Source of the DNA: Thermoanaerobaculia bacterium
Lineage (GTDB): Bacteria; Acidobacteriota; Thermoanaerobaculia; UBA5066
Direction of reading: 5' to 3'
DNA length: 64,000 nucleotides
Assembly: GCA_963816185.1 (NCBI GenBank)
Contig: CAWFJJ010000028.1
Location: forward strand, 1-64,000
Numbering within the stretch: position 1 is the stretch's first letter; every line of letters starts with the position of its first letter. Positions 1,716 to 54,124 of the stretch are shown one piece after another. The notes below the pieces were generated by a model. That model saw nothing but the letters and a program-made list of their open reading frames with translations, was not told where the DNA came from and made no database searches. The translations under genes and the position numbers were made by a program.

Positions 1716-3491
1716 ATGCGCACGACACGCTTCACGGTCGCGATGCCGCGGCCCGAGACGCATCTTTACGAGATCACGATGGAGGTCGACCCGAAAGGAG
1801 CGACGACGCTCGACCTTGTCCTTCCCGTTTGGACTCCCGGTTCGTACCTCGTCCGCGAGTTCGCGCGACACGTGAGAGATTTTTCTGCGAGAGAGAAGGG
1901 CACCCGCGGGACCATTCCCGCCGAGAAGGTCGCAAAGAACATCTGGCGTCTCTCTTTACCTTCTAAGAAATCTCTCGGTCTCGTCTCCGTCTCCTATCGC
2001 GTCTACGCCCACGAGCTGAGCGTTCGCACGTCGCATCTCGACTCCTCGCACGGTTACGGCAACGGCGCGAACCTTTTCTTCTACGTGGACGGGAGGAAGG
2101 AGGAGCCGCACGAGCTGCTCTTCGCGCTCCCGCGCGGCTGGAAAGCTTCGATCGCCCTCCCGGCGCGCGGCCGTGTCTTTCGCGCCGCCGACTACGACGA
2201 GCTCGTGGATTCGCCCTTCGAGTGCGGAACGCACCGGACGTTCGAGTTCGCCGTGCACGGCGTGCCGCACACGCTCGCGATCTGGGGCGGCGGCAATGAA
2301 GACCCGGCGCGCCTCGCCAGGGATCTCAAGCGGCTCGTGCTCGAAGCGGCGGCCCTCTTCGGTGGCCTGCCGTACGAGCGATACCTGTTTCTCGTTCACC
2401 TGTCGGCCGGGGCCCGCGGGGGGCTCGAGCATCTCTCCTCCCAGTCGGTGGCGTTCGATCCTCACGCGTTTCGGCCCGAAAAGGCGTATCGGGACGCCCT
2501 TCTCGTCTTCTCGCACGAGCTGTTCCACGCCTGGAACGTCAAGCGCATCCGGCCCGAATCGTTCGGCCCCTTCGACTACGAAGGCGAGGTCTACACGAAG
2601 GACCTCTGGGCTCTCGAGGGTTTTACCTCCTACTACGAGGCGCTTCTCCTCGTGCGCGCCGGCCTCCTGACCGAGGCGCAGGCTTTCGAGGAGTGGATGA
2701 GACACTGGAAGGCGCACCTCGAGACACCGGGTCGATTCGTTCAGAGCGCCGAGTCGGCCTCCTTCGACGCGTGGATCCGCTTCTACCGTCCCGACGAGAA
2801 TTCGGTGAACGTGTCGGAAAGCTATTACCGCCGCGGCGCGATTCTCGGCCTCGCGCTCGACCTGACGCTCCGCCGCGCCACGGGCGGCCGGCGCGGCCTC
2901 GACGAGGTCTTCCGGCGCCTGTTCCGCACGTACGCCGCGAAGGGCCTGGGATATCCGCCGCGGGCCTTCGAAGACGCGGCGGCAAGGGTCGCCCCGTCGG
3001 GCGCCATGGTGCGGCGCTTTTTCGAACGCGCCGTGCGCGGGACCGGAACGCCGGATCTCGGGCGGCTCCTCGGGGCTGTGGGCCTGAGACTTCGCGAGGT
3101 GCCCGAGACCGAGGAGGGCGTGACGGAGGGGATGGCTCCGCGCCTCAGGGCCGATTTCGGATGGAAGACGAAAGTCGAGGACGGGCGGCTCGTCCTTGCG
3201 GAGGTCCACGACGAAGGGCCGGCCCTGCGCGCAGGCCTGAACGCGGGAGACGCGCTCGTCGCCTTCGACGCGCGCCGCGCCGGCGAGGAGCTGATCGCCC
3301 GGCTCGAGAAGGAGCGCAAGCCGGGAAGCGCCGTGAAGGTCACCGTGTTCCGGCGGGACATCCTGGAGACCCACCGCGTGCGTCTCGGCGGGAGGCGGGC
3401 GTCCGTCTGGAGGATCGAGGCCCTGCCCGACGCGTCGTCTGGCGCGAAGCGCCTGAAGAAGCGCTGGTTGAAGACGCGTGTCAGCGCTTGA
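1716..3491 (+). CDS. M61 glycyl aminopeptidase family with C-terminal PDZ
   Basis: PVWTPGSY, GGLEH, HELFHAWN zinc motif, EGFTSYY; start taken at ATG 1716. Confidence 0.93.
   Translation: MRTTRFTVAMPRPETHLYEITMEVDPKGATTLDLVLPVWTPGSYLVREFARHVRDFSAREKGTRGTIPAEKVAKNIWRLSLPSKKSLGLVSVSYRVYAHELSVRTSHLDSSHGYGNGANLFFYVDGRKEEPHELLFALPRGWKASIALPARGRVFRAADYDELVDSPFECGTHRTFEFAVHGVPHTLAIWGGGNEDPARLARDLKRLVLEAAALFGGLPYERYLFLVHLSAGARGGLEHLSSQSVAFDPHAFRPEKAYRDALLVFSHELFHAWNVKRIRPESFGPFDYEGEVYTKDLWALEGFTSYYEALLLVRAGLLTEAQAFEEWMRHWKAHLETPGRFVQSAESASFDAWIRFYRPDENSVNVSESYYRRGAILGLALDLTLRRATGGRRGLDEVFRRLFRTYAAKGLGYPPRAFEDAAARVAPSGAMVRRFFERAVRGTGTPDLGRLLGAVGLRLREVPETEEGVTEGMAPRLRADFGWKTKVEDGRLVLAEVHDEGPALRAGLNAGDALVAFDARRAGEELIARLEKERKPGSAVKVTVFRRDILETHRVRLGGRRASVWRIEALPDASSGAKRLKKRWLKTRVSA
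1952..1975 (-). repeat. Dispersed 23-bp motif copy within M61 peptidase
   Basis: Reverse complement reads AGAGATTTCTTAGAAGGTAAAGAG. Confidence 0.85.
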
Positions 3492-4967: not shown

Positions 4968-6293
4968 TCAACAGGGCCGCTGCGCGCGCGGAATCTCACG
5001 CAGCCGGCGGAGCCAGGCCCGGGCCGCGTGCGGCCCGTGAATTTCCGAAGATGCGAGAGCGAGGTCGAAGGCGGCGAGGGCTCGCCCGAGCTCTGGCCCT
5101 TCCTCGAGGCCGAGGAGAGAAGAGATTTCTTTGAAAGGAAGAGGGCGGGTCGGCTTCAGAATCCGGCGGAGCGATGCAGGGCGCCGGAGGATCTCTTGGG
5201 CCGCGCGGGCCAGCTCTCTGGCCCGCGAGTCGCCGGCTGCCAGGAGGAAAGCGATGGATTCTGCTTCGAAAGGGGAAGAGAGGCGAAGGAGCGCGGCCAC
5301 GTCATGTCGCGAGGGAGGGCGGCGGGCGGCGCGTGGCCCCGAGAGCGGGAGAGCGTAGAGCCTGCCCGCTAGCCGCAGCTCCTCCCGGCTGGTCTTCCAC
5401 CTTCTAAGAGAATTTTCGGCTCTCTTCGGACCCATCGGGAGAAGTAGGAGCGCCCGCGCGACACGGGGGTCGCGGGAGTCGAGGCGGGAGACGAGGGAGA
5501 GACCGCGGCGCCGCTGGCGCGCCGCCGTGCCGGGAAAGAGATTGCCGCGCCGCCCACGCGGCGCGCTGCTTAGAAGGAGGGATTCGAGAGCGCCGACGCG
5601 CTCGAGAAACCGCAGGCCCTGCACCCTTCCGGCGGCGGGCGCGCCGAGGAGCTTGTCGAGCTCGACGAGGCGTCTTTCGGCAGCGACCATTCGAAGCATC
5701 TTCGCGGCCTTACGAAGTTCCGGGATGGCCGCTCGAGCGATATGGAACCGGGGCAGCTCCGCGAGAAACCGCGCGGCCCTGAGGACCCTCAGAGGATCTT
5801 CCAGGAAGACCCCGGGCCGCGGCGGAGCAAGCCGTCTTCCTTTCAGATCGTCGAGCGCGCCAGGCGCGCTCGAGAACGCGCCTCCCGGGAGAGAGAAGGA
5901 GAGCGTGTTCACGGTGAAGTCGCGCCGAAGGAGGTCTTGAGCGGCGTCCTCCGCCTCTTCCCAGACGTCGATCTCGTGCGCGCCAAATGGCACCTTGAGG
6001 ATGCGCTTCGGCGGGGCGCCGATCCGCACGACGCGTGATCCGGCCCGCGTCGCGAGCTCCGTCGCGAGCCTTTCGGCGCTCAGCGGCGGCGCGACGAGGT
6101 CGAGATCTCCGCCCCTCCTTCCGAGGAACGCGTCGCGCACCGCTCCTCCGACGGCCCGGACACCGTCCTCCGGGCGCGCGAGGGACGCCGCGGCTGCAGC
6201 GTCGGCACGCCGGAGCAGAGAACGGAAGCCGCGCCGGATCGCGGGGTCGCTCGTCAGCGGGAGGCCTCGTCGCGCCCCGTCGGGGCGGGCCAT
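4968..6293 (-). CDS. CCA-adding enzyme / poly(A) polymerase family nucleotidyltransferase
   Basis: VGGAVRD...DLD, DLLRRDFTVN, EDPLRVLRAARF; start uncertain. Confidence 0.88.
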   Translation of the reverse strand: MARPDGARRGLPLTSDPAIRRGFRSLLRRADAAAAASLARPEDGVRAVGGAVRDAFLGRRGGDLDLVAPPLSAERLATELATRAGSRVVRIGAPPKRILKVPFGAHEIDVWEEAEDAAQDLLRRDFTVNTLSFSLPGGAFSSAPGALDDLKGRRLAPPRPGVFLEDPLRVLRAARFLAELPRFHIARAAIPELRKAAKMLRMVAAERRLVELDKLLGAPAAGRVQGLRFLERVGALESLLLSSAPRGRRGNLFPGTAARQRRRGLSLVSRLDSRDPRVARALLLLPMGPKRAENSLRRWKTSREELRLAGRLYALPLSGPRAARRPPSRHDVAALLRLSSPFEAESIAFLLAAGDSRARELARAAQEILRRPASLRRILKPTRPLPFKEISSLLGLEEGPELGRALAAFDLALASSEIHGPHAARAWLRRLREIPRAQRPC

Positions 6294-11873: not shown

Positions 11874-11937
11874 TCGGCGATCGCGATTTCGAACCCCTGA
11901 AGATTTCTTCGAAGGAGGTTCGTTTGGCGAAGTCTGT

Positions 11938-12960
11938 TCACGCGCGGGGGCGAAGGCACGAGGGACAAGGAGGAAGAGGGAGATTTCTTTGAAGAAGGTT
12001 GATGGAACGCAGCCGATCGATGCGGGCCGCGCCGCAGCACGAGGGGGGGCCGAGAGCGTCGGCGTTCCAGAGGTCTGCGAGAACGACGCCCGCCACGCGG
12101 AGGTGCCTGTCTTCACTTTCTAAGAAATCTCCCGGGGCGTTCCCCTCTTCCCTTTCTAAGAAATCTTCAATTGCCATCTCCAAATCCTCGAGCGTGGGAG
12201 ACTCGAACAGGCCTTGCCTCTGCACCTCTTCCATCGCGCCGTTCCCGAGGCGCGTCGGAATGAGCGAAACGACGTCCGCGCCCGCCCGGAAGGACGTCTC
12301 GACGCTCGCACGCGTGGCACGCGGCCATTCCTCCCTCCGGAGAAACGGAAGACCGACGAGGACGAAGACCCTGAGGGAGATTCGATTCCGGAGGAGGAAC
12401 GATGCAGCGGCGAGGAAGTCCGCGACGGTCATCCCCTTGTTCAACCTTCTGAGGATTTCCTCGTTGGAGGTCTCGAGCCCGAGCGCGACCTGCAGCTCCG
12501 CGCCGCCGAGGAGATCGCGAAACCTCAGGGTCGACTCGCCGACGAGTGCGGGATGGCTTTCCACGACCACCCGCCCGAAGCCGCGTGCAAGCGAGGCGAT
12601 CTCCACGTGGTCCCCTCTCGGGATCGCCGCGCGGTCGAAGAAGCTGCCCGCGTTGTAGAGCTTCAGAACGTTCACGGACGGCAGCCTCTCCAGGGCAAAT
12701 CGCATCTGCGCCGGGATCGCGCCTTTCGGCGTCGGCGCTTCGAGAGTGTTCTTCCAGAGATCGCACATGAGGCAGTGCCACGGGCACTCCCGGTTCGTCA
12801 GGAGGATCGTGGCGACGTGATCCGTGCCGCCGCCCGTGCGCGGCTCCTCCTCGACGTAGAAGCCGTACGGGCGGTAGGGATCCACCGGGTTTCGCGGGGG
12901 CCTCAGGCCGAGGATCGATTCCTCGCTGGCCTCGCGACTCGCCGCCAAGAAGTCGATCAA
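11938..12960 (-). CDS. Radical SAM domain/protein, TIGR01210 (RaSEA)-like; in frame with the upstream Asn-synthetase-like ORF
   Basis: CPWHCLMC CxxxCxxC, KLYNAGSFFD, VVESHP, GLETSN...LNKG; possible own TTG start at 12960. Confidence 0.85.
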   Translation of the reverse strand: MIDFLAASREASEESILGLRPPRNPVDPYRPYGFYVEEEPRTGGGTDHVATILLTNRECPWHCLMCDLWKNTLEAPTPKGAIPAQMRFALERLPSVNVLKLYNAGSFFDRAAIPRGDHVEIASLARGFGRVVVESHPALVGESTLRFRDLLGGAELQVALGLETSNEEILRRLNKGMTVADFLAAASFLLRNRISLRVFVLVGLPFLRREEWPRATRASVETSFRAGADVVSLIPTRLGNGAMEEVQRQGLFESPTLEDLEMAIEDFLEREEGNAPGDFLESEDRHLRVAGVVLADLWNADALGPPSCCGAARIDRLRSINLLQRNLPLPPCPSCLRPRA

Positions 12961-14301: not shown

Positions 14302-14326
14302 GGGACCTCCAGCCTCCTTGGCGATC

Positions 14327-15235
14327 CTAACGCGCCGGGTCGGGGCTGTCCGAGCGGCGTCCGATGCGTGTGAGCGCGAGGCCGGCGAGCACGACGGCCG
14401 CCGAAAGGACTTTCTGCGCATTGAAGCGCTCGCCCGTGAGGATGGCCGACATGACGCCGGCGAGAACCGGGGTGAGGAAGGCGAGGCTTGTCGCCTGCGC
14501 GACGCCGAGCGCGCGCACGGCCCCGAGCCAGAGCCGGAAGGCGACGACGAGGGGAAGGAACGTCGACAAGACGACGATCACCCACGTCGACGGGCGGATG
14601 TGTGCGTAATCCTGCCGGAGCATGTCGGGCACGGTGTACGCGAGAACCAGGGGAGTCCCGCCGCCGAACGCGGCGAGCAGGGTGCCGAAAGGCGAAAGGA
14701 ACCGGGCGGCGCGGGCGGACGCGACGTTGTAGACGGCCCAGGACGCGGCCGCTCCGAGGCACATGAGGTTTCCCGCCGTGCTGCCGAAGTCCGGACCCCG
14801 GGCCGAGCCGACGAAGAGGGCGACCCCGCCCCAGGCGACGAGCGAGCCCGCGCCCGCGAGCGGCGACATGCGCTCCCAGCCGAAGAGGACGACGAGAAGC
14901 ATCGCGATGAGCGGCGAGACCGAGTTCAGGAGGGCCGCGGAAAAACCGCTCGTCGAGGCGAGTCCGAGCGCGTAGAGCCACTGGTACACGCCGACACCGG
15001 AGAGGGCGAGAACGACCGCGAGGCCGCGCGCGCCGGGCGGGGGCACGAGACGTTCCCGCCGGACGAGCGCCTCGGTGATGAGAAACGCCGTGGCGAAGAC
15101 GATCCGCCATCCGGTGAACGCCAGCGGGGAAAGCTCGCGATAGACGATTTTCGTGGCCGGGTAGTTCACCGCCCAGATGAGGACGGCCGCCAGCGCACCG
15201 AGGACGGCGAGGGTTCGTCGCAGGGCCGCCGTCAC
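14327..15235 (-). CDS. DMT/EamA family transporter
   Basis: ~10 TM segments, IWAVNYPATK, two EamA repeats. Confidence 0.9.
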   Translation of the reverse strand: MTAALRRTLAVLGALAAVLIWAVNYPATKIVYRELSPLAFTGWRIVFATAFLITEALVRRERLVPPPGARGLAVVLALSGVGVYQWLYALGLASTSGFSAALLNSVSPLIAMLLVVLFGWERMSPLAGAGSLVAWGGVALFVGSARGPDFGSTAGNLMCLGAAASWAVYNVASARAARFLSPFGTLLAAFGGGTPLVLAYTVPDMLRQDYAHIRPSTWVIVVLSTFLPLVVAFRLWLGAVRALGVAQATSLAFLTPVLAGVMSAILTGERFNAQKVLSAAVVLAGLALTRIGRRSDSPDPAR

Positions 15236-41238: not shown

Positions 41239-41310
41239 CTCTTCGAACCTTCCGCTGAGCGTCGCCATTCCGAAGGGGTGTCCCGGCCCGGATCTTGCGA
41301 GGTAGACTGC

Positions 41311-43296: not shown

Positions 43297-43997
43297 GGAG
43301 AACCCGTCCAATTCGGGTTGGCGGGTCGGCCCTCGTCTCAGTTTTTTTTTGCTTAGGAGGTGGATGCGGCAGCGGGCGGCCCGCGAAATCCGAAGCGCCA
43401 TCTCCCGGTGCGTCGGTGGTGGAGGCATATGAGAGGGCGCGTGCAACGGCGTGGGATCCCGCGCGCCGCTTCAAAGCGCTCTTCAAGGCTGAGGTCTCGC
43501 GGAACGTCGGCGCGATTTTGCGAGGCTACCTCTCCGTCTGGTGGAACGGCGCAGCCAGCACGCTCACCTGGCGGTCTTCGGCACCTCTTGCCGGGAGAGG
43601 GAGAGGGGGACTTCTTAGAAAAGGGACGAGGGGCGAGGAGGAAAGCGATGGCGGAGCGCCTGGATCGCGCCAGTCGTTGCTCCCCGGTCGGTTTGTTTCG
43701 GACGACATCCTCATGTGCATTCTCGGCGTTCCCGAGGCCGCGCTCTCTTCCTCTTCACCATTCGAAGAAACTCCGAGAGGCTTTCGGCTGCGCATCGGGG
43801 GCTCGAAGCGCTTCGTCCTCGTGAACCGTGAGGGAAAGCCGATCGAGTTCTCTTTCCCGAACGGCGAGACGGTGAAGGTTCAGCCGGGGGAAGGCGTGCC
43901 GCGCCGAATCGAGGCGAACGGCCCGGAAGGCCGTGCCGTCCTCACGCTCGAAACCTATTCGTCCTGGCCCGAGGGCGAGCGGGTTCCCCCGGCATGA
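43293..43997 (+). CDS. Hypothetical putative lipoprotein at the lolB position
   Basis: Overlaps both neighbours by 4 nt; hydrophobic N-terminus with GGGC lipobox-like motif. Confidence 0.6.
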   Translation: MRRTRPIRVGGSALVSVFFCLGGGCGSGRPAKSEAPSPGASVVEAYERARATAWDPARRFKALFKAEVSRNVGAILRGYLSVWWNGAASTLTWRSSAPLAGRGRGGLLRKGTRGEEESDGGAPGSRQSLLPGRFVSDDILMCILGVPEAALSSSSPFEETPRGFRLRIGGSKRFVLVNREGKPIEFSFPNGETVKVQPGEGVPRRIEANGPEGRAVLTLETYSSWPEGERVPPA

Positions 43998-44924
43998 GCG
44001 AGACCGGAAGGGCGCTGACCGTCGAGGCGTTCGCGAAGGTGAACCGCTCGCTGCGCAGTGCTGGGTAAGCGTCCAGACGGCTTTCACGAGCTCGACACGA
44101 TCTTTCAGACGGTGGATCTCACCGACAGGTTGTATTTCTTAGAAGGTGAAGAGAGCGGAAGAGCGACGGGCCACGTCTCGCTGACGGTGGAGGGCGTCGA
44201 TCTTCCCGCAGACTCCAGCAATCTCATTCTCCGCGCCGCTGACGCGCTGCGCGTGCGCTTCTCGGTGCGCCTCGGCGCCCGTATTCACCTTTCTAAGAAG
44301 ATCCCCTTGGGCGGTGGCCTTGGCGGAGGCAGTTCGAACGCGGCTGCGGCGCTGAGGGGCCTGGTCGCGCTCTGGAAGCTGCCCGCGACCGAAGCCGATC
44401 TGCACGCCGTGGCAGCCTCCCTCGGGTCCGACGTGCCTTTCTTTCTGATCGGCGGCCGAGCGCGAGGCACGGGGCGCGGCGAAATTCTGGAGCCTCTTCC
44501 GGACGGCCCCGAGGAGTGGCTCATCCTCGCCTTTCCATCGTTTTCTCTTTCCACGGCAGCGGTTTACGGGGCAGTTTCCGTCCCTGCGTTGACAGATTCC
44601 GTCGCCCAAACTAACCTTGGCGGTTCCGGATCCGGTGGCGGGCCGGATCGGAACGACCTGGAGCCGGCGGCGGAATCCCTCCGTGGAGAGCTGCGCAGGC
44701 TTCGTCTGGCCCTGTCGGACTTCGGCGCGACGAGCGCACGCCTGTCCGGGAGCGGCTCGACGGTGTTCGGGGTATTCGGCGACGAAAGAAACGCCCGGCG
44801 CGCCTTCGAAGGGCTCGCTGGGGTTCGGAAAGAAGTGATGGCGACGATGACGATCGTGAAGACCGTGTCGAAGGCGGCGTTCGTGCGCCGGGCGATGCCC
44901 TCGGACAGGGTGCAACGCGGATGA
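43994..44924 (+). CDS. ispE: 4-diphosphocytidyl-2-C-methyl-D-erythritol kinase, frameshifted near 44057
   Basis: FAKVN (from ATG 43994), then KRPDGFHEL, KIPLGGGLGGGSSNAA, GSDVPFF, LSGSGS. Confidence 0.93.
44133..44303. repeat. Forward/reverse pair of the dispersed motif inside ispE
   Basis: TATTTCTTAGAAGGTGAAGAG (44133) and TTCACCTTTCTAAGAAGATC (44284). Confidence 0.85.
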
Positions 44925-44961
44925 TCTCCGCCTGCGCGAGAATCCACGCGGGACTTCCGGA

Positions 44962-45036
44962 TGGGGAGTCGACAAGTGGTAAGTCAGCGGTCTTTGGAAC
45001 CGCCATTCGGAGGTTCGAATCCTCCCTCCCCAGCCA
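44962..45036 (+). tRNA. tRNA-Gln(TTG)
   Basis: TGGGGAG/CTCCCCA acceptor stem, GCGGT-CTTTGGA-ACCGC anticodon arm, GGTTCGAATCC T-arm, encoded CCA; canonical ispE-prs position. Confidence 0.97.
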
Positions 45037-45057
45037 GTTTCCTCATGTCAGGGCGTC

Positions 45058-46011
45058 ATGGAACGATTTCCGTACGGCGATCTGAAGGTCTTCGGGGGGC
45101 GATCCCATCCACCCCTCACGGGCGAGATCTGCCGGAACCTCGGCCGCGAGGCCGGTCGCGTCACGCTCTACAATTTCTCTGACGGCGAGAACTACTGCCA
45201 GATCGAGGAGAACGTCCGCGGCGCGGATGTGTTCATCGTGCAGCCAACGGGCCCGCCGGCGAACCACAACATCATGGAGCTCCTCATCATGCTCGACGCG
45301 TTCAAGCGCTCCTCGGCGTCGCGCGTGACCGCCGTGCTTCCGTACTACGGCTATGGGCGGCAGGACCGGAAGGACAAGCCCCGCGTTCCGATCACCGCGA
45401 AGCTCATCGCGGATCTCATCACGGCGGCGGGCGCCGACCGGGTGCTCTGCGTGGACTTGCACGCGGCGCAGATTCAGGGCTTCTTCAACATCCCCGTGGA
45501 CCACCTCTTCGCGGCGCCCGTTCTTCTCGACGCGATCCGCGACGCGAACCTCGACCCGCTCACGGTCGTGTCGCCGGACGCGGGCGGCGTCGAGCGCGCA
45601 CGCGCGTTCGCGAAGCGTCTCGCCGCAGGCCTCGCGATCATGGACAAGCGTCGGAAGGGGAAGAACGAGGTCGAGGTCCTGCACGTCATCGGCGACGTGA
45701 GGGACCGCAACGTCGTCGTCGTCGACGACATCATCGACACGGCCGGCACGCTGATCAATACGGTCATCGCGCTCCGCGACGCGGGTGCGCGGCGAATCTT
45801 CGCAGGGTGCGTGCATCCCGTGCTGTCCGGACCCGCCATCGACCGTGTCAACGCGAGCCCCATCGAGCGCGTGTTCTGCACGAACACGCTCCCGCTCGAC
45901 GAGAAGCTCGCACGCTGCCCGCTCGTCGTACCGCTCTCCATCGCCCCGCTCCTTGCGGAGGCGATCCAGAGGATCCATCAGGGGGCGTCCGTTTCATCGC
46001 TGTTCGTGTAG
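45058..46011 (+). CDS. prs: Ribose-phosphate pyrophosphokinase
   Basis: FSDGE, PYYGYGRQDRK, DLHAAQIQGFF, DDIIDTAGT. Confidence 0.97.
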   Translation: MERFPYGDLKVFGGRSHPPLTGEICRNLGREAGRVTLYNFSDGENYCQIEENVRGADVFIVQPTGPPANHNIMELLIMLDAFKRSSASRVTAVLPYYGYGRQDRKDKPRVPITAKLIADLITAAGADRVLCVDLHAAQIQGFFNIPVDHLFAAPVLLDAIRDANLDPLTVVSPDAGGVERARAFAKRLAAGLAIMDKRRKGKNEVEVLHVIGDVRDRNVVVVDDIIDTAGTLINTVIALRDAGARRIFAGCVHPVLSGPAIDRVNASPIERVFCTNTLPLDEKLARCPLVVPLSIAPLLAEAIQRIHQGASVSSLFV

Positions 46012-46141
46012 ACAAGCGCCAAAACGCAGGCAGCCTCGGCGCGATCATTCGTCCGAGGAAGTCTGATATTCTTCCCCGTTCTCTAACCGGACCGTCCGCC
46101 CCGAGAATCCTCTCGGGACCGGGCGCCCTCGAAAGGAACCC

Positions 46142-46906
46142 ATGCTCCAGGAACACATCGTCGTCGAAGTCGAGAAGCGGCTCACGACCGGGAAGAACGC
46201 CGCGAACCGCCTGCGCGCGCAGGATCAGATCCCGGCCGTCCTCTACGGAGGCGGCAAAGAGATGGAAACCTGGTCGCTGCAGGTGCCGCGTAAGACCCTC
46301 GCGACCCTTCTCAACAAAGGCCTGCACTCCAACGCCATCTTCAAGCTCAATCTGAAGGGCACGACCCAGACGCGCCACGTGATGATCCGCGACCTCACGC
46401 TGGACCCCGTCTCTCGGAAGATGCTGCACGTCGACTTCGTGCGGGTGCTTCTCGACCGAAAGCTCCGCGTCAAGAGCGAGGTCGCGATCGAGGGCGTGCC
46501 GAACGGCGTCAAGAACGCGGGCGGCATTCTGAACATCGTCACCCACGAGATCCTCATCGAGTGCCTTCCGGCGGACATTCCGGAGTCCGTGAAAGTGGAC
46601 GTCTCCGCGATGGAGATGCACGACTCGATTCGCGTGGCGGACCTCAAGCTCGGCGACAAGATCAAGGTTCTCGAGAACGGGGACCGCGTCATCGCGCACG
46701 TGGGCGTGCCGAAGGCCGAGGAAGTCGCCGCTCCGGCCGCCGCCGAAGCCGTCGTCGGCATCGAGGGCGCCGCGGTGCCGCCCGCCGAGCCCGAGGTGAT
46801 CAAGAAGGGCAAGAAGGAAGAGGAAGGCGCCGAGCCTGCCCCCGCCGGGAAAGCCGCGGTGCCGCCGAAAACCGAGGGCAAGGCGGAGAAGAAGGAAAAG
46901 AAATAG
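46142..46906 (+). CDS. rplY: 50S ribosomal protein L25/Ctc
   Basis: GKNAANRLR..IPAVLYG, HVDF, CLPADIPE, EPEVIKKGK. Confidence 0.95.
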   Translation: MLQEHIVVEVEKRLTTGKNAANRLRAQDQIPAVLYGGGKEMETWSLQVPRKTLATLLNKGLHSNAIFKLNLKGTTQTRHVMIRDLTLDPVSRKMLHVDFVRVLLDRKLRVKSEVAIEGVPNGVKNAGGILNIVTHEILIECLPADIPESVKVDVSAMEMHDSIRVADLKLGDKIKVLENGDRVIAHVGVPKAEEVAAPAAAEAVVGIEGAAVPPAEPEVIKKGKKEEEGAEPAPAGKAAVPPKTEGKAEKKEKK

Positions 46907-47517
46907 GCACGGACGGCCTCTTCCTCGTGGTAGGACTCGGCAACCCCGGCGACCGGTATACCGGAACGCGCCACAACGTCGGCTTCGACGTCGTGCAGAC
47001 GTTCGCCTGGAGAGCCGCCGGCCGTCCGCCGCGTCTCGACCGGCTCGACTGCCGCGCGCTCACGGGACGCGTCAAAGTCGGGGATCGCGCGGTCATCGTG
47101 GCCCGGCCCCAGACCTACATGAACGCGTCGGGCGAGTCCGTGAAGGGCCTCGCGCTCAAGTACGACGTCCCCCTCGAGCGAATCATCGTCGTCTCCGACG
47201 ACACGGCACTGCCCGTCGGCGCGCTCCGAATTCGCCGATCCGGCTCTTCCGGCGGCCAGAAGGGGCTTCAATCCGTGATCGACTGCTTCGGCACGAACGC
47301 GGTCCCGCGCCTGCGCCTGGGCGTGCGCGGAGAGAACTTCCAGGCGGGAGAGGCGCTCGATACGTACGTTCTCTCGCGGTTTTCGAAGAAGGAGCGCCCC
47401 GTCGTGGACGAGACCATCGCTTCGGCGTGCGAGGCCCTTGCCGTGTTCGTCACCGACGGAATCGACGCCGCCATGAACCGTTTCAACCGTTCGCCCGAGG
47501 AAGATCCGGCGAGCTGA
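46903..47517 (+). CDS. pth: Peptidyl-tRNA hydrolase
   Basis: VVGLGNPG, TRHNVGF, PQTYMNASG, RLRLG; start ATA 46903 or GTG 46927. Confidence 0.93.
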   Translation: MGTDGLFLVVGLGNPGDRYTGTRHNVGFDVVQTFAWRAAGRPPRLDRLDCRALTGRVKVGDRAVIVARPQTYMNASGESVKGLALKYDVPLERIIVVSDDTALPVGALRIRRSGSSGGQKGLQSVIDCFGTNAVPRLRLGVRGENFQAGEALDTYVLSRFSKKERPVVDETIASACEALAVFVTDGIDAAMNRFNRSPEEDPAS

Positions 47518-47607
47518 ACATCAACCTTGGCTCGGCACCGGACCAGAGGTCCAAAGCCGCGCCTCGCGACCGGCGAATACCGGCGCGATCCAGAAGGAGG
47601 AGACCGC

Positions 47608-48057
47608 GTGACCACCCAGAGCCCTCAACGCCAGTACGACATGGTCTTTCTCGTCGTCCCCGAGAAGGACGAGGCGGCAGCCCTCGCCGTCGTCGAAGAG
47701 TTCCGAAAGCTCCTCGTCGACAACGGCGCCACGATCGAGAAGGACGAGTCGATGGGACGGCGCCGCCTCGCCTACACCATCAAGAAAAGGACCGAGGCGA
47801 CGTACCACAACTTCCTGTTTCGGGCGCCCACGGCGTGCGTCACCGAGGTGCAGCGCAAGATGCGACTCTCGGAAGACGTCCTGCGGTTCCTCTCCGTTCG
47901 GATCGACGAGGAGGTCAAGCACGGCCTGAAGGTGGCGCGAAATACGAAGCCGCGCCGCCCGCGCCCCGAAGCGTCCGAAGCGCCGCATGCCGGTCCGTCC
48001 GCTGCTCCCTCCACCACGCCTCCGGCCGAGCCGGCCGGCGACTCCCGTCCCGAGTGA
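47608..48057 (+). CDS. rpsF: 30S ribosomal protein S6
   Basis: GRRRLAYTIKK, EDVLRFL; GTG with AAGGAGG RBS. Confidence 0.93.
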   Translation: MTTQSPQRQYDMVFLVVPEKDEAAALAVVEEFRKLLVDNGATIEKDESMGRRRLAYTIKKRTEATYHNFLFRAPTACVTEVQRKMRLSEDVLRFLSVRIDEEVKHGLKVARNTKPRRPRPEASEAPHAGPSAAPSTTPPAEPAGDSRPE

Positions 48058-48081
48058 CCCGAAAAGGTTCAGGAGAACACA

Positions 48082-48333
48082 ATGGCCGCTCCCGTTCGCA
48101 AGCCCGTCAAGAAGAAGTTCTTCGTGCGCCGCAAGCGCGTCTGCAAGTTCACCGTCGAGAAGATCGGCTACATCGACTTCAAGGACGTGAAGCTGCTCGC
48201 GGGATTCGTTCCCGAGCGCGCGAAAATCCTCCCACGCCGCATCAGCGGGACATCCGCTTTCTATCAGCGCAAGCTGGCGACCGCCATCAAGCGCGCGCGC
48301 TACCTCGCGCTGCTGCCCTACGTCTCCGATTAA
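48082..48333 (+). CDS. rpsR: 30S ribosomal protein S18
   Basis: [33 protein letters not shown]. Confidence 0.96.
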
Positions 48334-49306
48334 ACGAGCCCTCGCCGTTCTCGGGGCGGCGCTCGCGGCGGCTTTGACCGCAGCGGCGCCGCCCTTCGGC
48401 TTCGTTCTGATGCCGCATGCGGCCGCACGTCTGGGCCGCGCGGCGCTCGGGTCGCGGCGCCTCGCCGCCGGTTTTGCGCTGCCGCCTCTCGCGGTCCCGG
48501 TCGCGCTCCTCCTGGGCGCGCTGATCGCGCCGGAAGGCGCGGTCGTCGCCGCGGTTCTTGCCATCGCCCTCGTCGCTCTTCCCGCCGTGGCGCTCTTTGC
48601 GGCGGCTCGAGACGGCCGCCGGCGGGACGACGTCCTTCTCGTCGTATTCGCCCTGACCGGGATCGGCGGTCTCGCGGCCCTCCTCGGGTTTTCGGTCGCG
48701 ACGGGTCGGGACCCCGGCGTCGTTCTTGCGAGCCGCTGGGCTGCGCTCATCCCCGAAATCCTCGCGGGCTACCGGTCGAGCGGCTGGAGCGAGTCCTCGC
48801 TCGCAACCGTCGCGCGCCTTTTCGAGTTCGGCCGCGTCCTCGTCGAAGAGCAGCTCGCGGGCCTCGTCCTCGCGGCCGCCGTGCTGCACGCGGCCCTGGT
48901 GGTCTACGGGTTCGCGCGCGGCGCGGGCCTTGCCGAAGCGGACTGGTCCGAGGCGTCCTTCAGCCGTTTCCGGACTCCTCTTGCCGCAGCCGCGGCGTTC
49001 GTACCCGCGGGTCTCCTGGCGGCCGTGGGGGGCGCGGAGCTTCGCCGGCCGGCCGTCGATCTTCTGCTGCCGCTCGGCGTCTTGTTTTTCCTGAGGGGTC
49101 TCGCCATAATCCGCGCTCTTCTCGACCGCGGAAGAGCCGGCCTCGTCGGCCGGGCGCTCGTCTACGTGCTGGTCTTTCAGATGCCGTTTCCCCTTCTTCT
49201 CGCGCTCTCCGGCCTTTTCGACGAGTTCGTCGACGTGAGGACGCGGCTCGAAAAGAGAGGATCCGGCGGCGGGTCCGCGAGTCCACCCGGCCCCGACGGG
49301 TTCTGA
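48329..49306 (+). CDS. DUF2232/YybS-like membrane protein
   Basis: Multi-[23 protein letters not shown]; located between rpsR and rplI; start ATT 48329 or TTG 48374. Confidence 0.75.
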
Positions 49307-49341
49307 TCGGTGACATACCCTGTAAACCTGAGGAGCTCGAA

Positions 49342-49791
49342 ATGAAATTGGTCCTGACCGACGACGTGAAAGGGCTGGGGCACCGGGGCGATGTGGTGAA
49401 CGTCGCCGAGGGCTACGGTCGGAACTTCCTGCTCCCGAAAGCGCTCGCGTACCCCGCCACGGACGGCAACGTGAAGCGGCTCGAGCAGGAAAAGAAGCGC
49501 TACGACGCGCGCATCGAGCACGAGAAGGACCAGGCCGCAGGTGTGGCGAAGTCCATCGAGGGCACGAAGATCGTCCTCCACAAGAAGGCGGGCGAAAACG
49601 ACGCGCTCTACGGCTCCGTGACCCCGTCGGAGGTGGCCGACGCGCTCGAGGCCAAAGGGATCACCGTCGACAAACGGAAGATCGATCTCGAGGAGCCCAT
49701 CAAGCGCCTCGGCACGCACACGGTCCACGTGAAGCTGCATCGCGACGTGATCGTGGGCCTGACCGTCGAGGTCCTGCCGGTCGTCGCCTGA
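49342..49791 (+). CDS. rplI: 50S ribosomal protein L9
   Basis: LG..GDVVNVAEGYGRNFLLP, LYGSVT, PIKRLG. Confidence 0.97.
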   Translation: MKLVLTDDVKGLGHRGDVVNVAEGYGRNFLLPKALAYPATDGNVKRLEQEKKRYDARIEHEKDQAAGVAKSIEGTKIVLHKKAGENDALYGSVTPSEVADALEAKGITVDKRKIDLEEPIKRLGTHTVHVKLHRDVIVGLTVEVLPVVA

Positions 49792-49816
49792 GCCGGGCGC
49801 CAACGGCGTTTCGTCT

Positions 49817-51541
49817 GTGAGGCCACGCCGCGCCGGGGTCTTCAGGTGGGTATTCGGGGTCGCCGCTTTCCTCGGCGCTTCGGCGGCGTGGACTGTGCCG
49901 GTTTCGGCGGACGGCCTCGAGGTTCTGCGGACGTCCTTCTCGCTCCTTTTCACGGGTTCGTTCCGGCTCCCTCCTCCGCCGCCCGGCGTGCGGGTCGACC
50001 CGTATCAGCACCGAAAGCTGCCTGGAGGAGAGCCGGGTTACGACGTTTCGTATCAGCCGCTTGGCTCCTTCGCGCGAACAGCGCTCCTCGCTCCCGTCGG
50101 CTTTGTGCCGGCGGGGGCCGTCCGCGGGCGCGTCGCCGACGCCGTTCTTCAGCTTCTGCCCATTTTGCTCACCGCGTTCGCGGTCGTGCCGCTCACACGT
50201 CTCGCCCGCTTAGCAGGGTGCTCTCGTCGCGCGGCGCCGGCGCTCGCGTCGATGCTTCTCGTCGCGACGTTTCTCGGCCCGCTCGGGCGGCTCGACTTTC
50301 CGGAGCCATCCCTCGTCCTCCTTTCCGTCTGGTCTCTCGAGCGGATCCTCGTGGCGCGCAGGCGGGAGGGTGCGCCCCGGCTGAAGGCCCTGGCGGCGGG
50401 CGGGGGCCTGGCCGGGCTCGCGCTGCTCGCGAAGCCCACGGCCTTCGTCCTCGTCCCGGCTCTCCTTCTTGCCGTCGCTCGGCCGCTTCGGAGGCCTGTC
50501 AGGGGTAGGGACTTAGCGACTTTCGCGGCCGGAATGTTCCCCGGTCTCGTCGCCTTCTTCACTTTGAACTGCGTGCGCTTCGGGAGCGCGCTGGACTTCG
50601 GGTATCGGTGGGGCGATTTGCCTTCCGGGGGCGAGCGCCTTCCGCTGCTGTGGACCGCTCTGCGCCTCACCCTGCTTCCGAACCGCGGCGTCTTCTGGTT
50701 CGCGCCGCTTCTCCTGCTCGCCCTGTTCATCCCGATGAGAAGTCGGCTCGCCGAGCCCCTGCGGACGGATTGCGGAGCCGCACTCATGGCTTCGGGCGGC
50801 TTCTTTGCAGCGAATCTCTGGTGGTGGGTTTGGGAAGGCGGATTCGGCTGGGGCCCGCGTCTCCTCGCTCCTGCCGTCGCGCTCTCGATCCCATGGCTCG
50901 CCGGGCGCGGGCGGGCTTGGCGTCGGGCCGCCTTCGGCCTGGCGCTTTTCGGATTCGTTCTCAATTTGCCGGCCTATTTGTTCGCCGAGCGCCGGCTCTA
51001 TTCGTTCGTCGAGCTGGGGCCGTCCCCCGGTGCTCCCGTGGGCCCCGTGATGCCGCGCCACCGGGCCCCCGACCATCCCGGAGACGTTCATCCGGCTCAG
51101 CGCCTTCATTACATTCCAGCGGCCGCGTCGTGGATCGAGGGCCCCCGGCTTCTTTTCGCGCTCGTCACGCAGGGCAACGGAAGAGAAACCGGGGACGTCG
51201 CGGGCGATGCGAGATCGGATTCCCTCGTGATCCGCCTCCTCCTCGGGAAGCCGGCCCTGCCCGCGATCTCCGGTGTGGGGCGGCTCCTCTTCGACGACGC
51301 CGAAATGGCGGCCGACGTTGAGCCGCAGCGCGCGCTGACGTTCGCGAGGGCGGCGATCGATTTCGGCGGTCCGCCGGTGGACACCAGAGCCTTTATTTCG
51401 ATGCTGCTTCTCCGACGTGGACGAGCCCTGGAGGCCGCGCGCGTCTGCCGTGAAGCTCTCGCGCTGGATCCCGGCCGTGCCGACCTCCGCTCGAACCTCG
51501 CGCTCGCGCAGAGAATGCTGGATAGTTCTCCCAAGAGGTGA
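49817..51541 (+). CDS. Multi-TM membrane protein (GT-C/ArnT-like) with C-terminal TPR
   Basis: Many TM helices, LAKP, N..RFG, WGPRLL, terminal TPR (ALALDPG). Confidence 0.6.
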   Translation: MRPRRAGVFRWVFGVAAFLGASAAWTVPVSADGLEVLRTSFSLLFTGSFRLPPPPPGVRVDPYQHRKLPGGEPGYDVSYQPLGSFARTALLAPVGFVPAGAVRGRVADAVLQLLPILLTAFAVVPLTRLARLAGCSRRAAPALASMLLVATFLGPLGRLDFPEPSLVLLSVWSLERILVARRREGAPRLKALAAGGGLAGLALLAKPTAFVLVPALLLAVARPLRRPVRGRDLATFAAGMFPGLVAFFTLNCVRFGSALDFGYRWGDLPSGGERLPLLWTALRLTLLPNRGVFWFAPLLLLALFIPMRSRLAEPLRTDCGAALMASGGFFAANLWWWVWEGGFGWGPRLLAPAVALSIPWLAGRGRAWRRAAFGLALFGFVLNLPAYLFAERRLYSFVELGPSPGAPVGPVMPRHRAPDHPGDVHPAQRLHYIPAAASWIEGPRLLFALVTQGNGRETGDVAGDARSDSLVIRLLLGKPALPAISGVGRLLFDDAEMAADVEPQRALTFARAAIDFGGPPVDTRAFISMLLLRRGRALEAARVCREALALDPGRADLRSNLALAQRMLDSSPKR

Positions 51542-51562
51542 CACCTGAGCCTGGCGAGTGGA

Positions 51563-54124
51563 ATGAAGTTGGGCCCCTACGAGATTCTCGCGCCTCTCGG
51601 GTCTGGCGGGATGGGAGAGGTCTACCGGGCGAAAGACCCGAGGCTCGCGAGAGATGTCGCGGTAAAGGTACTGCCGAGAGATTTCTTAGAAGGTGAAGAG
51701 AGGAAAGAACGCTTCGAGAGGGAAGCGAGGCTGCTTGCGGCGCTGAATCACCCGGGCATCGCTGCCATCTATTCATTCGAAGAAATCCCCGGTTCTCCCG
51801 GCTCCTCGGCAGTTCACGTTCTTACGATGGAGCTTCTCGAGGGGGAAACGCTCCGTGCGCGCCTCGCGTCCGGGCCGCTCCCCTTACGCAAGGCAGTGGA
51901 CTTCGCTGTCCAGATCGCCCGGGCTCTAGCTGCCGCGCACGAGAAGGGCGTTGTCCACCGGGACCTCAAGCCCGAGAACCTCTTCGTGACGAGGGACGGC
52001 CGGATCAAGATCCTCGACTTCGGCCTCGCGAAGTCCGTCGAAAAAGGTGCCGGATCCGGCGGCACGAACCTGCCGACTATGTCGAAAGGCACAGAGCCGG
52101 GCGCGGTCCTCGGGACGCTCGGCTACATGTCGCCCGAGCAGCTCCGCGGTCTGCCGACGGACCACCGGACCGACCTCTTCAGTTTCGGCGCCGTCCTGTA
52201 CGAGATGCTCTCCGGGCGCAAGGCGTTCCGGGGCGACACGGCGGCCGACACGGTCTCGGCGATCCTGCGCGAGGAGCCGCAGGACCTCTCAGCGACGAAT
52301 CGGACGATCCCGCCGGCCCTCGAGCGCATCGTGCGTCACTGCCTCGAGAAGAGCCCGGACGAGAGGGCACATTCCGCGCACGATCTCGCGTTCGACCTCG
52401 AGTCCCTTTCGACGGCGTCCTCGGGCGCCGTGCCGGCCTCCGTTCCCCGGATTGCGGTCCGCCGGCCGCGGGCGGGCCAGATCCTCGCGGCCGCGGCGTG
52501 CGTCGCCGCGGGCGTCGTCGCCGGCCGGCTTCTCTGGAAAACAGCCGCGCCGGCCCCACCGACGTTTCACCGGCTCACGTTCCGGCGCGGGAACGTCCTC
52601 TCGGCGCGCTTCGCTCCGGACGGGCGGACGATCGTTTACGGTGCGGCCTGGGGAGGCAATCCGTCCGAGATCTACACGGTTCGGACGGAGGGACCCGAGT
52701 CGCGGCCGCTCGGCCTTCCGAACGCGACGGTCGCTTCAGTGTCGTCGACGGGCGAGCTCGCAATGTTCTCGCGCGAGGGGATGACGACGATGGGGGCTTG
52801 GGCCACGCTCTCTCGCGTGCCACTCGCGGGCGGCGCTCCGAGGCCGCTCCTCGAGGAGGTCGGCGCGGCCGACTGGACGCCCGACGGCAAGGAGCTCGCC
52901 GTCATGCGGGTCCGCGAGGGGGGAGGGCGCCGCCTCGAGCTCCCAGCGGGCAAGACGCTCTTCGAGACGAAAAAGAGAACGGAGGGGCTGCGCGTCTCGC
53001 CGGACGGCAAGCACGTCGCAATCGCGGAAGTGGACGGCGAGAAGACTTCGCTCGTCGTCGTGGACCTCGCCGGCAAGGCCCGCACGGTCGTCGGACCCTT
53101 GCAGGTCCTCGTGGGGACGTTCGCGTGGCTTCCGTCGGGGCGCGAGATCCTGTTCTACGGCGGCGCCTCCCGCGACGACACCGCCCTGCGCGCCGTCGAC
53201 CTTTCCGGACGCGTGCGCACGCTCTATCGGTCCACCGGGGTCCTCTTCGTGCACGACGTGTTCCCGGACGGGCGGGTGCTCGTCGAGCACGCGATGAGCC
53301 TCCGGGGCCTCATGTTCGCGCGCGCCTCGGACGGGCAGGAGACGGACCTCTCGTGGTTCGACTCCTCGAATGTCGCGGACGTCTCCATCGGGGGGAAGGC
53401 CCTCCTTTTCAACGAAGAGGGCGAGGCGACGGGCGGGACGCCGCGCGCGTTCTTCCGGAGGACGGACGGCTCGCCGGCCGTGCGGATCGGCGACGGCGCC
53501 GGGCTCGCTCTCTCACCGGACGCGAGCCGCGCGCTCGTGCGGGAAGGCGACGGCGTCGCGGTCGTCCCCGTGGGAGCCGGCACGCCGCAGCGTCTCGCGC
53601 TCGGGCCCGTCGCGGACGTGACGGGCGCGACGTTCTTCGCCGACGGAAAGAGGATCCTTCTCTACGGTTCCGAGAAGGGGAAGGGCCCTCGGTTCTGGAT
53701 CGTCGAGCCGCCTGCCGAACCGCGCGCGGTCACGCCCGAGAACACGCTGGGCGCCGCGGGTCTCCTGTCACCCGACGGCCTGAGGGTCGTCGTGTGGTCC
53801 GCGGACACGTCCATCCTCTCGATCCTTCCGCTCGGCGGCGGGCCAGCGGTCGCGCTCGCGGGCACCGAGCACGACGACCCGATCGCTTGGACGCCGGACG
53901 GACGGGGGCTGTACGTGAGGCCAGGAGGCGGAGAGTCCGGCCGGATCGAGATCCTCGACGTGACCACGCGGACCCGCAAGCCCTGGAAAATTCTCGCCCC
54001 GCCGGACCCGGCGAGCGTCTCGGAGATCTCATCGGGCGCGTTCGCCCGCGACGGCTCGGCGTACGCATACACGTATCGGCGCGTCCTGACGTCGGACCTC
54101 TACGTCGTCGAGGGCCTGAAGTGA
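51563..54124 (+). CDS. Ser/Thr protein kinase with TM and PD40/beta-propeller domain
   Basis: GSGGMGEVY, VAVK, HRDLKPEN, DFG, YMSPEQ; repeated SPDG/WTPDG. Confidence 0.95.
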   Translation: MKLGPYEILAPLGSGGMGEVYRAKDPRLARDVAVKVLPRDFLEGEERKERFEREARLLAALNHPGIAAIYSFEEIPGSPGSSAVHVLTMELLEGETLRARLASGPLPLRKAVDFAVQIARALAAAHEKGVVHRDLKPENLFVTRDGRIKILDFGLAKSVEKGAGSGGTNLPTMSKGTEPGAVLGTLGYMSPEQLRGLPTDHRTDLFSFGAVLYEMLSGRKAFRGDTAADTVSAILREEPQDLSATNRTIPPALERIVRHCLEKSPDERAHSAHDLAFDLESLSTASSGAVPASVPRIAVRRPRAGQILAAAACVAAGVVAGRLLWKTAAPAPPTFHRLTFRRGNVLSARFAPDGRTIVYGAAWGGNPSEIYTVRTEGPESRPLGLPNATVASVSSTGELAMFSREGMTTMGAWATLSRVPLAGGAPRPLLEEVGAADWTPDGKELAVMRVREGGGRRLELPAGKTLFETKKRTEGLRVSPDGKHVAIAEVDGEKTSLVVVDLAGKARTVVGPLQVLVGTFAWLPSGREILFYGGASRDDTALRAVDLSGRVRTLYRSTGVLFVHDVFPDGRVLVEHAMSLRGLMFARASDGQETDLSWFDSSNVADVSIGGKALLFNEEGEATGGTPRAFFRRTDGSPAVRIGDGAGLALSPDASRALVREGDGVAVVPVGAGTPQRLALGPVADVTGATFFADGKRILLYGSEKGKGPRFWIVEPPAEPRAVTPENTLGAAGLLSPDGLRVVVWSADTSILSILPLGGGPAVALAGTEHDDPIAWTPDGRGLYVRPGGGESGRIEILDVTTRTRKPWKILAPPDPASVSEISSGAFARDGSAYAYTYRRVLTSDLYVVEGLK
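51677..51787. repeat. Forward/reverse pair of the dispersed motif inside the kinase gene
   Basis: AGAGATTTCTTAGAAGGTGAAGAG (51677) and CTATTCATTCGAAGAAATC (51769). Confidence 0.85.

Follow-up and report, generated by a model that had tools for sequence, protein, structure and literature searches.

Throughout a 64-kb window of DNA from a Thermoanaerobaculia bacterium, and throughout the genome to which it belongs, copies of an asymmetric motif of roughly 25 bp form facing pairs in which a forward copy is followed by a reverse copy. The window is the first 64 kb of contig C28. The functional unit is the facing pair, with GGTGAAGAG sides inward and the two copies mostly 65–100 bp apart. Pairing and abundance are far from chance. 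Pairs are laid over coding sequence in three reading frames, are conserved at orthologous positions and are restricted to one genus. The motif is mostly not a mobile element, and its properties fit a nucleotide-level, genus-specific signal that arose in place and is kept by selection or drive. We tentatively favor the view that it is a two-part, double-stranded DNA site for a putative lineage-specific protein, a reading we consider quite possible rather than probable.

Motif and facing pairs

The forward form of the motif is approximately GAGATTTCTTAGAAGGTGAAGAG, and the reverse form is its complement. The core, TTCTT[A/C]GAA, has an exact count of 624 on both strands of the whole genome and the architecture of a near-palindrome, TTCT-N-AGAA, with a degenerate center position. 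An outer flank (GAGAT) and an inner flank (GGTGAAGAG) make the site asymmetric. Both flanks lie inside a purine-rich stretch of about 55 nt, with purines extending about 30 nt outward and 20 nt inward. The assembly (5,088,052 bp in 30 contigs, 94.9% complete) was scanned at a cut-off of at least 16 bits with a 30-column weight matrix made from the genome's own copies and refined from the exact-core set. Matrix information is concentrated in T-TTCTT-[A/C]-GAA-G-G. The window has a G+C content of 67.8%, and the best-matching public DNA runs are soil metagenomes; none of the 20 runs listed was of RNA.

The scan found 964 sites in the 5.09-Mb genome versus about 47 expected, scaled from 23 in 2.5 Mb of sequence simulated with a third-order Markov model. 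With the cut-off raised to 25 bits, 560 sites remained, versus approximately 2 expected from the same simulation. As a control, the backwards matrix returned 323 sites, of which 288 were no more than 40 nt from a real site, in the purine-rich flanks. Neighbors within 300 bp were overwhelmingly forward-then-reverse (303 cases), with 12 reverse-then-forward, 67 forward-forward and 67 reverse-reverse (binomial p = 1e-79 for the forward-then-reverse excess versus a 25% expectation). An earlier note on this DNA had drawn such an excess from the window, and it holds genome-wide. When all neighbors were counted regardless of distance, forward-then-reverse neighbors (331, median 105 bp) were far closer than reverse-then-forward neighbors (323, median 4.1 kb), with 139 forward-forward and 148 reverse-reverse. 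For neighbors scoring at least 25 bits and lying 30–300 bp apart, the respective counts were 145, 1, 21 and 16. A facing partner at 30–400 bp was present for 736 of the 964 sites (76%). Shuffling of strand labels (200 times) produced a mean of 265 such sites, with a standard deviation of 16.5 and a maximum of 316.

Center-to-center spacings of 312 pairs, in successive 20-bp bins, numbered 2, 1, 12, 71, 67, 34, 31, 30, 16, 13 and 10, with a thin tail to 400 bp. The commonest spacing was 65–100 bp, and coding and non-coding pairs had a common mode at 70–90 bp.

In the window, the earlier note had listed 15 forward-then-reverse pairs by motif starts, which lie some 8–12 nt left of our matrix centers. 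Both partners scored at least 16 bits in 14 of these. For the remaining pair, 688/838, the reverse copy passes (846, 17.2 bits) and the forward copy is sub-threshold (TTCTTAGAT at 690–698). The scan added one pair, 1887/1965, and ten further copies, at 5131, 11909, 12158, 12451, 28340, 28688, 34260, 36543, 36735 and 51714. Three long stretches said to lack copies are indeed free of sites at the cut-off (12452–24444, 44296–51686 and 51781–64000). Genome-wide, the largest motif-free gaps, up to 131 kb long, have ordinary G+C content and ordinary G+C at third codon positions (GC3). Of the densest clusters, the one read through, at 688.7–692.8 kb of contig C1, proved to be ordinary coding DNA, by eye a transporter loop and an acyltransferase, and no special locus. 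One whole contig (C18, 57,122 bp) is motif-free, with G+C of 64.6% and GC3 of 0.78, both lower than in the genome overall; it could represent foreign DNA, a plasmid or an error of binning.

The reverse form also resembles the 3' end of the genome's 16S rRNA together with the first bases of the spacer (..TCACCTCCTTTCTAAGGGATCTC..; L001 3040–3075). With three bases skipped, the two have TCACCT, TTCTAAG and ATCTC in common, which gives the forward form the look of an extended Shine-Dalgarno sequence. The likeness may be a coincidence of purine-rich sequence.

Pairs within coding sequence

The gene map took in stop-to-stop open reading frames (ORFs) that were no shorter than 120 codons and had a coding-like GC phase; together they span 82% of the genome. 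Of 309 pairs, 176 were inside one ORF (at least 57%), 54 partly so and 79 outside; these fractions are approximate, as the home-made map misses some real genes, a point that also tells against our preferred reading. The coding share is an undercount, because one dense cluster scored as ORF-free was plainly coding when read through. By site, 641 of 964 (66%) were in coding-like ORFs versus 81% of random positions. The interiors of pairs had been described as unrelated from pair to pair and often ordinary coding sequence. Both statements are borne out, with 264 of 301 inner sequences matching no other, at least 176 of 309 pairs inside ORFs and several window genes identified by Pfam and PDB searches.

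The overlay uses all three frames. Among 167 coding pairs, forward copies divide 71/48/48 and reverse copies 69/27/71. The center base is A in 43% and C in 44% of ORF pairs, versus 67% and 28% outside ORFs; the C variant appears where the A variant would give a TAG or TAA stop. An artifact of a shared protein motif (FLEGEE or SKKI) was rejected, since three frames are used and non-coding copies exist. Density was 0.041 sites per kb in ORFs with GC3 above 0.9 versus 0.23–0.26 at lower GC3, making sites five- to six-fold rarer there than at GC3 of 0.75–0.85. A codon-usage gene caller trained on this genome skipped exactly the motif-bearing genes (asd-lysC-dapB, the decarboxylase gene, ispE and the poly(A)-polymerase-family gene), whose GC3 is 0.74–0.77 versus 0.85–0.95 in motif-free stretches.

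By Pfam and PDB searches, window pairs fall in nine genes, among them those for an M61 peptidase, a poly(A)-polymerase-family protein, a 2-oxoacid dehydrogenase E2, aspartokinase, DapB, a BtrK/LysA-like decarboxylase with two pairs, IspE and a Ser/Thr kinase. The decarboxylase is colinear with PDB 2j66 across both of its pairs with only a 7-residue difference in length, and the second pair has no gap in that alignment. IspE compared with PDB 1oj4 has no net insertion at its pair. Because solved homologues align without insertion at the pairs, the copies are written on native coding sequence. The largest cluster of related interiors comprises 14 Ser/Thr kinase paralogues with a pair at the same place in the alphaC-beta4 segment, where the forward copy encodes ..EEFFEGEE.. 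and the reverse copy ..SFEEI.. Contig C24 carries at least four Ser/Thr kinase paralogues within about 18 kb (approximately 602.9–621.0 kb), each with two motif pairs at the same two kinase-domain positions and spacings of 93 and 113–119 bp.

The prevalence of pairs inside genes bears on two explanations. The first, that the motif is transcription punctuation (promoters, bidirectional terminators or both, at the ends of transcription units), accounts for several intergenic forward copies close behind a stop codon, with a reverse copy before the next gene; the copy at 41147 lies 23 nt after a stop, and that at 24496 contains one. We consider it very unlikely. In addition to the at least 176 of 309 pairs inside ORFs, the 78 non-coding pairs are near baseline in every type of gap (++ 23, -- 23, +- 19, -+ 13). 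A scan of 31000–46000 gave 2 promoter-like and 6 terminator-like matches, none of which overlaps a motif core, and the 3-nt spacing of TTCACC to TAAGAA is unfit for a sigma-70 promoter. Divergent promoters were rejected, as flanking genes occur in every orientation and the majority of pairs lie within genes. Nor can alternative termination be put down to a loss of Rho, which is present.

The second explanation, that facing copies are recombinase sites that flip the DNA between them, has in its favor that inverted repeats bound short segments and that a minimum spacing exists. We find such invertons scarcely credible, given that only 51 of 167 coding pairs (31%) would still have an open frame after a flip, versus 1014 of 1670 controls (61%), and that the segments include cores of essential enzymes. 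All 15 contig joints listed from four soil runs were skips, although contigs drop rare variants and cannot show them.

Conservation among relatives

The exact 12-mer TTTCTTAGAAGG occurs in 26 of 26 genomes of the genus, with 21–210 copies each, and in 7 of 8 genomes of the sister genus g17, with 1–16 copies each. It is absent from 26 genomes of eight other genera of the family and from 12 genomes of two other families. The backwards 12-mer control had 0–3 copies. Syntenic DNA of 40–100 kb was compared from five species (G003, G007, G011, G014 and G031) at 84–90% or approximately 76–78% DNA identity to the window's own genome, G000. The orientation bias recurs there, with 53 forward-then-reverse neighbors versus 12 reverse-then-forward; as syntenic sites are largely orthologous, these orientation counts are not independent.

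In alignments, the two cores are nearly invariant and the DNA between them has diverged. Of 224 core columns, 152 were invariant; of 1783 columns in the coding DNA inside and beside the pairs, 1000 were (odds ratio 1.65, p 7e-4). At the forward site of ispE, the genus has TTA GAA versus CTG GAG in a genome of the sister genus, a synonymous difference that runs against GC3 bias, and the forward copy is absent from both g17 genomes whose loci aligned in register. Coding pairs keep their position and sequence in relatives, and intergenic units turn over.

The dapB gene presents a special case. Of 19 genus orthologues, 17 share the codon position of the forward copy, and most species partner it with a reverse copy encoding ..LLSKKIP.. 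In four species including G000, a nearer reverse copy lies on extra in-frame DNA, the interior of which differs by species. In G000 the extra segment is 132 bp (44 codons, in frame, 34047–34178) and is mostly made up of the pair, and the old reverse copy, at 34260, is degenerate. The close relatives G003 and G011 are without both the forward copy and the extra DNA. Judged from these alignments, dapB is the sole clear insertion-like case. The pair acts there as the unit, and the pattern suggests upkeep of a partner roughly 100 bp away.

[quoted passage not shown] It has no counterpart in two close relatives and has unrelated interiors in three other species; moreover, intergenic units are present or absent between species, which makes insertion plausible for them, and an MFS-type transporter loop contains, by eye, a low-complexity unit. 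An origin of this sort is improbable. In ispE, the BtrK-like decarboxylase gene, lysC and the kinase genes, native conserved coding DNA without insertion lies between the copies. The 264 unrelated interiors of 301 also count against it, and so does the conservation of ends but not of interiors. The dapB junctions revealed no target duplication that could be defined. Facing pairs 400–4000 bp apart number 8 in the genome, and no transposase was found in the 3 looked at, whose interiors hold a tRNA-synthetase fragment, an ABC ATPase, and ORFs without a Pfam match.

Recognition of the motif

Partners do not covary. Across 309 pairs all columns had |z| of 2.7 or less, and partners were no more alike than random copies. 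The arms of coding pairs match at 2824 of 5511 positions, and the center base is concordant in only 50%. Coding pairs have no sense-strand G:U excess (596 versus 574 antisense, p 0.54), and unpaired copies in ORFs have no strand polarity (68 forward versus 63 reverse on the sense strand). The lack of covariation, G:U excess and polarity, along with the degenerate center and the spacing mode common to coding and non-coding pairs, favors recognition by protein on double-stranded DNA. Recognition at the sequence level combined with a facing-pair unit favors, in turn, a two-part binding site.

These results bear directly on a hairpin element that acts as single-stranded DNA or RNA, like REPIN/BIME doublets, and might serve as an RNase III or stabilizer site, a terminator-like structure or a substrate for a single-strand enzyme. 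The consensus cores are complementary, and most of 40 units with 66–82-bp spacing fold with the two cores paired in a long hairpin. Purines predominate on one strand of each site, the interiors of intergenic pairs have a high G+C content and a propensity for hairpins, and spacing has a lower limit and a decaying tail. Complementarity does not, however, extend beyond the consensus; the arm matches, center concordance, G:U counts and lack of polarity also count against a hairpin, and very short loops are rare (12 pairs at 40–60 bp versus 71 at 60–80 bp). A Y1/RAYT gene was sought with PF01797, which had no match in the 94.9%-complete genome and, as a control, was positive in 6 of 14 reference genomes. 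T-run terminators were absent from the sites in the scan of 31000–46000, and convergent gaps held 19 of 78 non-coding pairs versus a 22% baseline. We regard a hairpin element as rather unlikely.

A further alternative is an uptake-sequence-like element under molecular drive, through biased uptake, repair or gene conversion, in which the signal is the facing pair. It would be in keeping with some 1000 copies in one lineage and a faint trace in the sister genus, with the use of three frames and of stop-avoiding variants, with conserved orthologous positions, and with depletion in the highest-GC3 ORFs and free loss of intergenic copies. The 66% of sites in ORFs versus 81% of random positions may be compared with uptake sequences of Pasteurellaceae, for which excerpts of one survey give 47–70% in coding regions versus a coding fraction of 84–89% (PMC2346458). 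Genes for ComEC and DprA are present in the genome, although both are nearly universal. Against drive, 76% of copies belong to oriented pairs and keep to a favored spacing, unlike the uptake sequences reported in those excerpts (PMC2346458), and units are clustered and not evenly spread. The earlier note had not expected a fixed relative orientation of simple uptake sequences. That view is reasonable, but leaves room for a drive that recognizes the pair, which we judge unlikely yet worth serious consideration. To our knowledge, transformation has been little studied in this phylum.

Several observations weigh against a two-part site read by a protein. We found no candidate binding protein. Each site has a strong purine/pyrimidine strand asymmetry, more typical of single-strand recognition. 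A rigid loop of 70–100 bp would require spacings phased at 10.5 bp, and such periodicity was not convincing, with a vector strength of 0.077 versus approximately 0.056 for random spacings (255 pairs). Non-coding pairs (n = 64) gave 0.22 at a period of 11 versus approximately 0.11 random, which fails correction for the number of periods tried. Genome-wide, the 491 units are unevenly spread and moderately clustered, with gaps of 9.4 kb on average and 5.0 kb at the median (coefficient of variation 1.38). Conservation of cores over neighboring coding DNA, though significant, is modest. Of four clearly intergenic units in the window, three are missing in at least half of the relatives compared, and such frequent loss is odd if each unit is needed locally. 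Finally, depletion in the highest-GC3 ORFs fits a tolerated cost, and hence drive. The lack of phasing, strand asymmetry, intergenic loss and avoidance of codon-biased genes keep drive, a hairpin and a decayed in-frame MITE alive as rivals.

For the two-part site, we infer a protein as the reader, double-stranded DNA as what it reads, and the nature of the resulting complex. Each core would be read as double-stranded DNA by a putative lineage-specific protein, probably a dimer on the near-palindromic core. Two occupied sites would then cooperate head-to-head over the intervening DNA by flexible bridging or wrapping, and the outcome would be an architectural or boundary-type complex. The earlier note had proposed a protein that bridges two sites into a small loop or wrap, or a directional loader or blocker that would act between them. 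The proposal is supported in part: double-stranded recognition is favored, but no binder was identified and the lack of helical phasing speaks against a rigid small loop. A more ambitious version envisages a sequence-addressed, chromatin-like system in which a genus-specific protein clamps facing pairs and wraps or bridges about 80 bp. Each unit would also be a back-to-back pair of polar boundary sites, and the 491 units would segment the chromosome at a median of 5 kb (mean 9.4 kb), and hundreds of housekeeping genes would have been recoded at synonymous and loop positions. We think this version rather doubtful and offer it as speculation.

Units of the window

Units are described by span and by the matrix centers of their forward (F) and reverse (R) copies, without assignment of strand to a pair. 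All pairs below except the first two are among the 14 confirmed. The weak unit at 678–858, between lexA (67–675, Pfam LexA) and an alpha/beta-hydrolase gene (857–1681, Pfam Abhydrolase), consists of the sub-threshold forward core at 690–698 and the reverse copy centered at 846. G003 lacks it, G011 has it in part, and in G007 another repeat takes its place. Enclosed within the unit is a copy of a different hairpin repeat, a second family that is a true repeat with a conserved interior and occurs at window positions 700–830 and nine other loci (e.g., C14 41643–41886 and C24 143242–143485). The second repeat is composed of a GTCAAGGG...CCCTTGAC hairpin and a GCGGCGGCTGC...GCAGCCGCCG hairpin, and its ends (..TTCTTATATGCGGCGGC..) resemble the motif core. 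In G007 it occupies two orthologous intergenic motif sites (24.4 kb and 41.2 kb), so the motif core may be its insertion target.

The pair F 1887/R 1965 (1875–1977; 21.6 and 36.2 bits) lies in the N-terminal domain of the M61 peptidase gene (ORF 1482–3491; Peptidase_M61_N, residues 84–249), and both copies are kept in G011, G003 and G007. The poly(A)-polymerase/CCA-adding-family gene (minus strand, ORF 4968–6293, Pfam PolyA_pol) contains F 5131 and F 5266/R 5406 (5119–5418), and 3 of 3 relatives retain F and R. Where two convergent ORFs meet, F 11909, F 11989, R 12122 and R 12158 are nested (11897–12170), and an additional reverse copy lies beyond the cluster at 12451. The segment 11880–12190 is 311 nt in G000 versus 1715–1829 nt in four relatives; it seems that DNA the size of a gene has disappeared from between two units.

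An intergenic pair, F 24445/R 24496 (24433–24508; 31.3 and 32.1 bits), has a reverse copy that contains the stop codon of a radical-SAM gene (24494–25501, minus strand). A homologous unit with identical deviations from consensus is present in the distant species G031. The unit is missing from four other species, being absent in G011, G003 and G014 and replaced by a different repeat in G007. The pair F 25468/R 25507 (25456–25519; 18.7 and 26.4 bits), with centers 39 bp apart, is present only in G000 among six genomes compared.

Two weak units lie in inter-domain linkers of the 2-oxoacid dehydrogenase E2 gene (27498–29117, minus strand; lipoyl 4–75, E3-binding 170–203, catalytic 303–529). The second linker holds F 28340 and F 28373/R 28445 (28328–28457; 16.7–22.9 bits), and the first F 28688 and F 28760/R 28832 (28676–28844; 18.1–20.6 bits). 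A contig from a related soil strain skips 423 bp (28452–28876) between the two linker regions, suggesting either a variant without the E3-binding segment or repeat-mediated length variation. Overall, contigs of related strains from four soil runs had length differences at 28452–28876, 32771–32973, 41227–41285 and 44055–44265.

The aspartokinase gene (lysC, Pfam AA_kinase) carries F 32739/R 32914 (32727–32926). Both copies are present in 5 of 5 relatives, and the inner sequence diverges. The dapB pair is F 34051/R 34152 (34039–34164). At least two window genes have frameshifts in the assembly: asd, aspartokinase and dapB form a single 1120-codon ORF (31404–34766) only by accident of frame, the frame changing near 32380 in asd and near 33500 in the gene for aspartokinase. 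One base, at 33499, is missing from a contig of a related strain, so at least the second of these shifts is probably an assembly error or a strain-specific lesion.

The BtrK/LysA-like decarboxylase gene (36554–37843) has two unpaired forward copies at its start, 36543 and 36735 (36531–36752, plus strand; 20.3 and 20.5 bits). Of its two pairs, F 37066/R 37217 (37054–37229) is present in 3 of 5 relatives, with R only in 2, and F 37312/R 37586 (37300–37598) is present in 5 of 5, the conserved reverse copy adjoining a fully diverged loop. The intergenic pair F 41147/R 41230 (41135–41242) separates a methylmalonyl-CoA mutase gene (39390–41120) from a TPR protein gene (41278–43296). It is present in one of three relatives (G011), is absent in G003 and has another repeat in its place in G007. 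An ORF without a Pfam match (43293–43997) contains F 43616/R 43765 (43604–43777), with both copies in 3 of 5 relatives and F only in 2.

In ispE (44058–44924), F 44140/R 44295 (44128–44307; 31.8 and 28.6 bits) encode ..YFLEGEE.. and ..IHLSKKIP.., respectively. Of 28 core columns, 23 are invariant across 6 genomes, and both copies are present in 5 of 5 relatives. Lastly, the kinase domain of a Ser/Thr kinase gene (51563–54124) belonging to the 14-member paralogue group holds F 51687, F 51714 and R 51780 (51675–51792). The copy at 51687 has the top score in the window (37.3 bits), R 51780 scores 28.5 bits, and the pair 51687/51780 is kept in 3 of 3 relatives.

Relation to known repeated signals

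Few features of bacterial genomes are as poorly understood as highly repeated, lineage-specific DNA signals, of which uptake sequences, REPs and HIP1 are examples. As a sharp genus marker, the motif could help to bin soil metagenome contigs and flag foreign ones, and it depresses standard gene-calling scores nearby. Should a protein read it, bacteria would have an architectural or boundary complex of a new type, positioned by sequence, and codon choice would here be constrained by a second code. Should drive be responsible, no earlier uptake-like signal would have had a two-part grammar. No description of the motif was found among the papers listed by full-text searches; those listed for the 9-mer cores concerned eukaryotic STAT-type sites or were unrelated.

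The motif fails at least one defining feature of each known family tested. It resembles the uptake signal sequences and DNA uptake sequences (USS/DUS) of Pasteurellaceae and Neisseriaceae in being lineage-specific, in numbering hundreds to thousands, and in occupying both coding and non-coding DNA with some under-representation in the former, as described in excerpts of PMC2346458. According to the same excerpts, uptake sequences have no general orientation bias, and a substantial fraction lies outside inverted-repeat form (PMC2346458). Here, the single copy is not the unit: the approximately 25-bp asymmetric site is three-quarters paired in one relative orientation at a spacing of about 80 bp, also inside genes. 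REPINs, as an extract of their description has it, are inverted doublets of a short repeat with a spacer, over-represented relative to singlets and present in hundreds of copies (PMC3116915). Our motif likewise occurs in inverted doublets (736 of 964 paired versus 265 expected), as in REPINs and BIMEs. Unlike REPINs, which are extragenic, replicate as units and lie near RAYT genes, it is mostly intragenic, with unrelated spacers and no Y1 gene.

Rickettsia palindromic elements are short palindromic units found in protein genes and translated as surface-loop insertions. The dapB case is similar, but most coding cases have no insertion and have copies laid over conserved native residues. Nematomorph mitochondrial genes contain inverted repeats in functional coding sequence with both arms encoding conserved protein (PMC6649704); those palindromes are long, perfect and gene-specific, whereas here a consensus motif is shared about 1000 times. 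In-frame MITEs differ as well, since the interiors here are not a repeat family. Convergent or divergent pairs of CTCF sites, which anchor loops and mark domain boundaries in vertebrates, comprise asymmetric sites whose relative orientation, rather than exact spacing, is informative. They provide an analogy only, from another domain of life and at distances of 100 kb and more versus about 80 bp here. None of these known classes has a comparable rule, namely that copies must face each other in pairs, preferably about 80 bp apart. Even genes for enzymes such as IspE, DapB and aspartokinase follow it within their coding sequence, and it persists throughout the 26 genomes of the genus that were searched.

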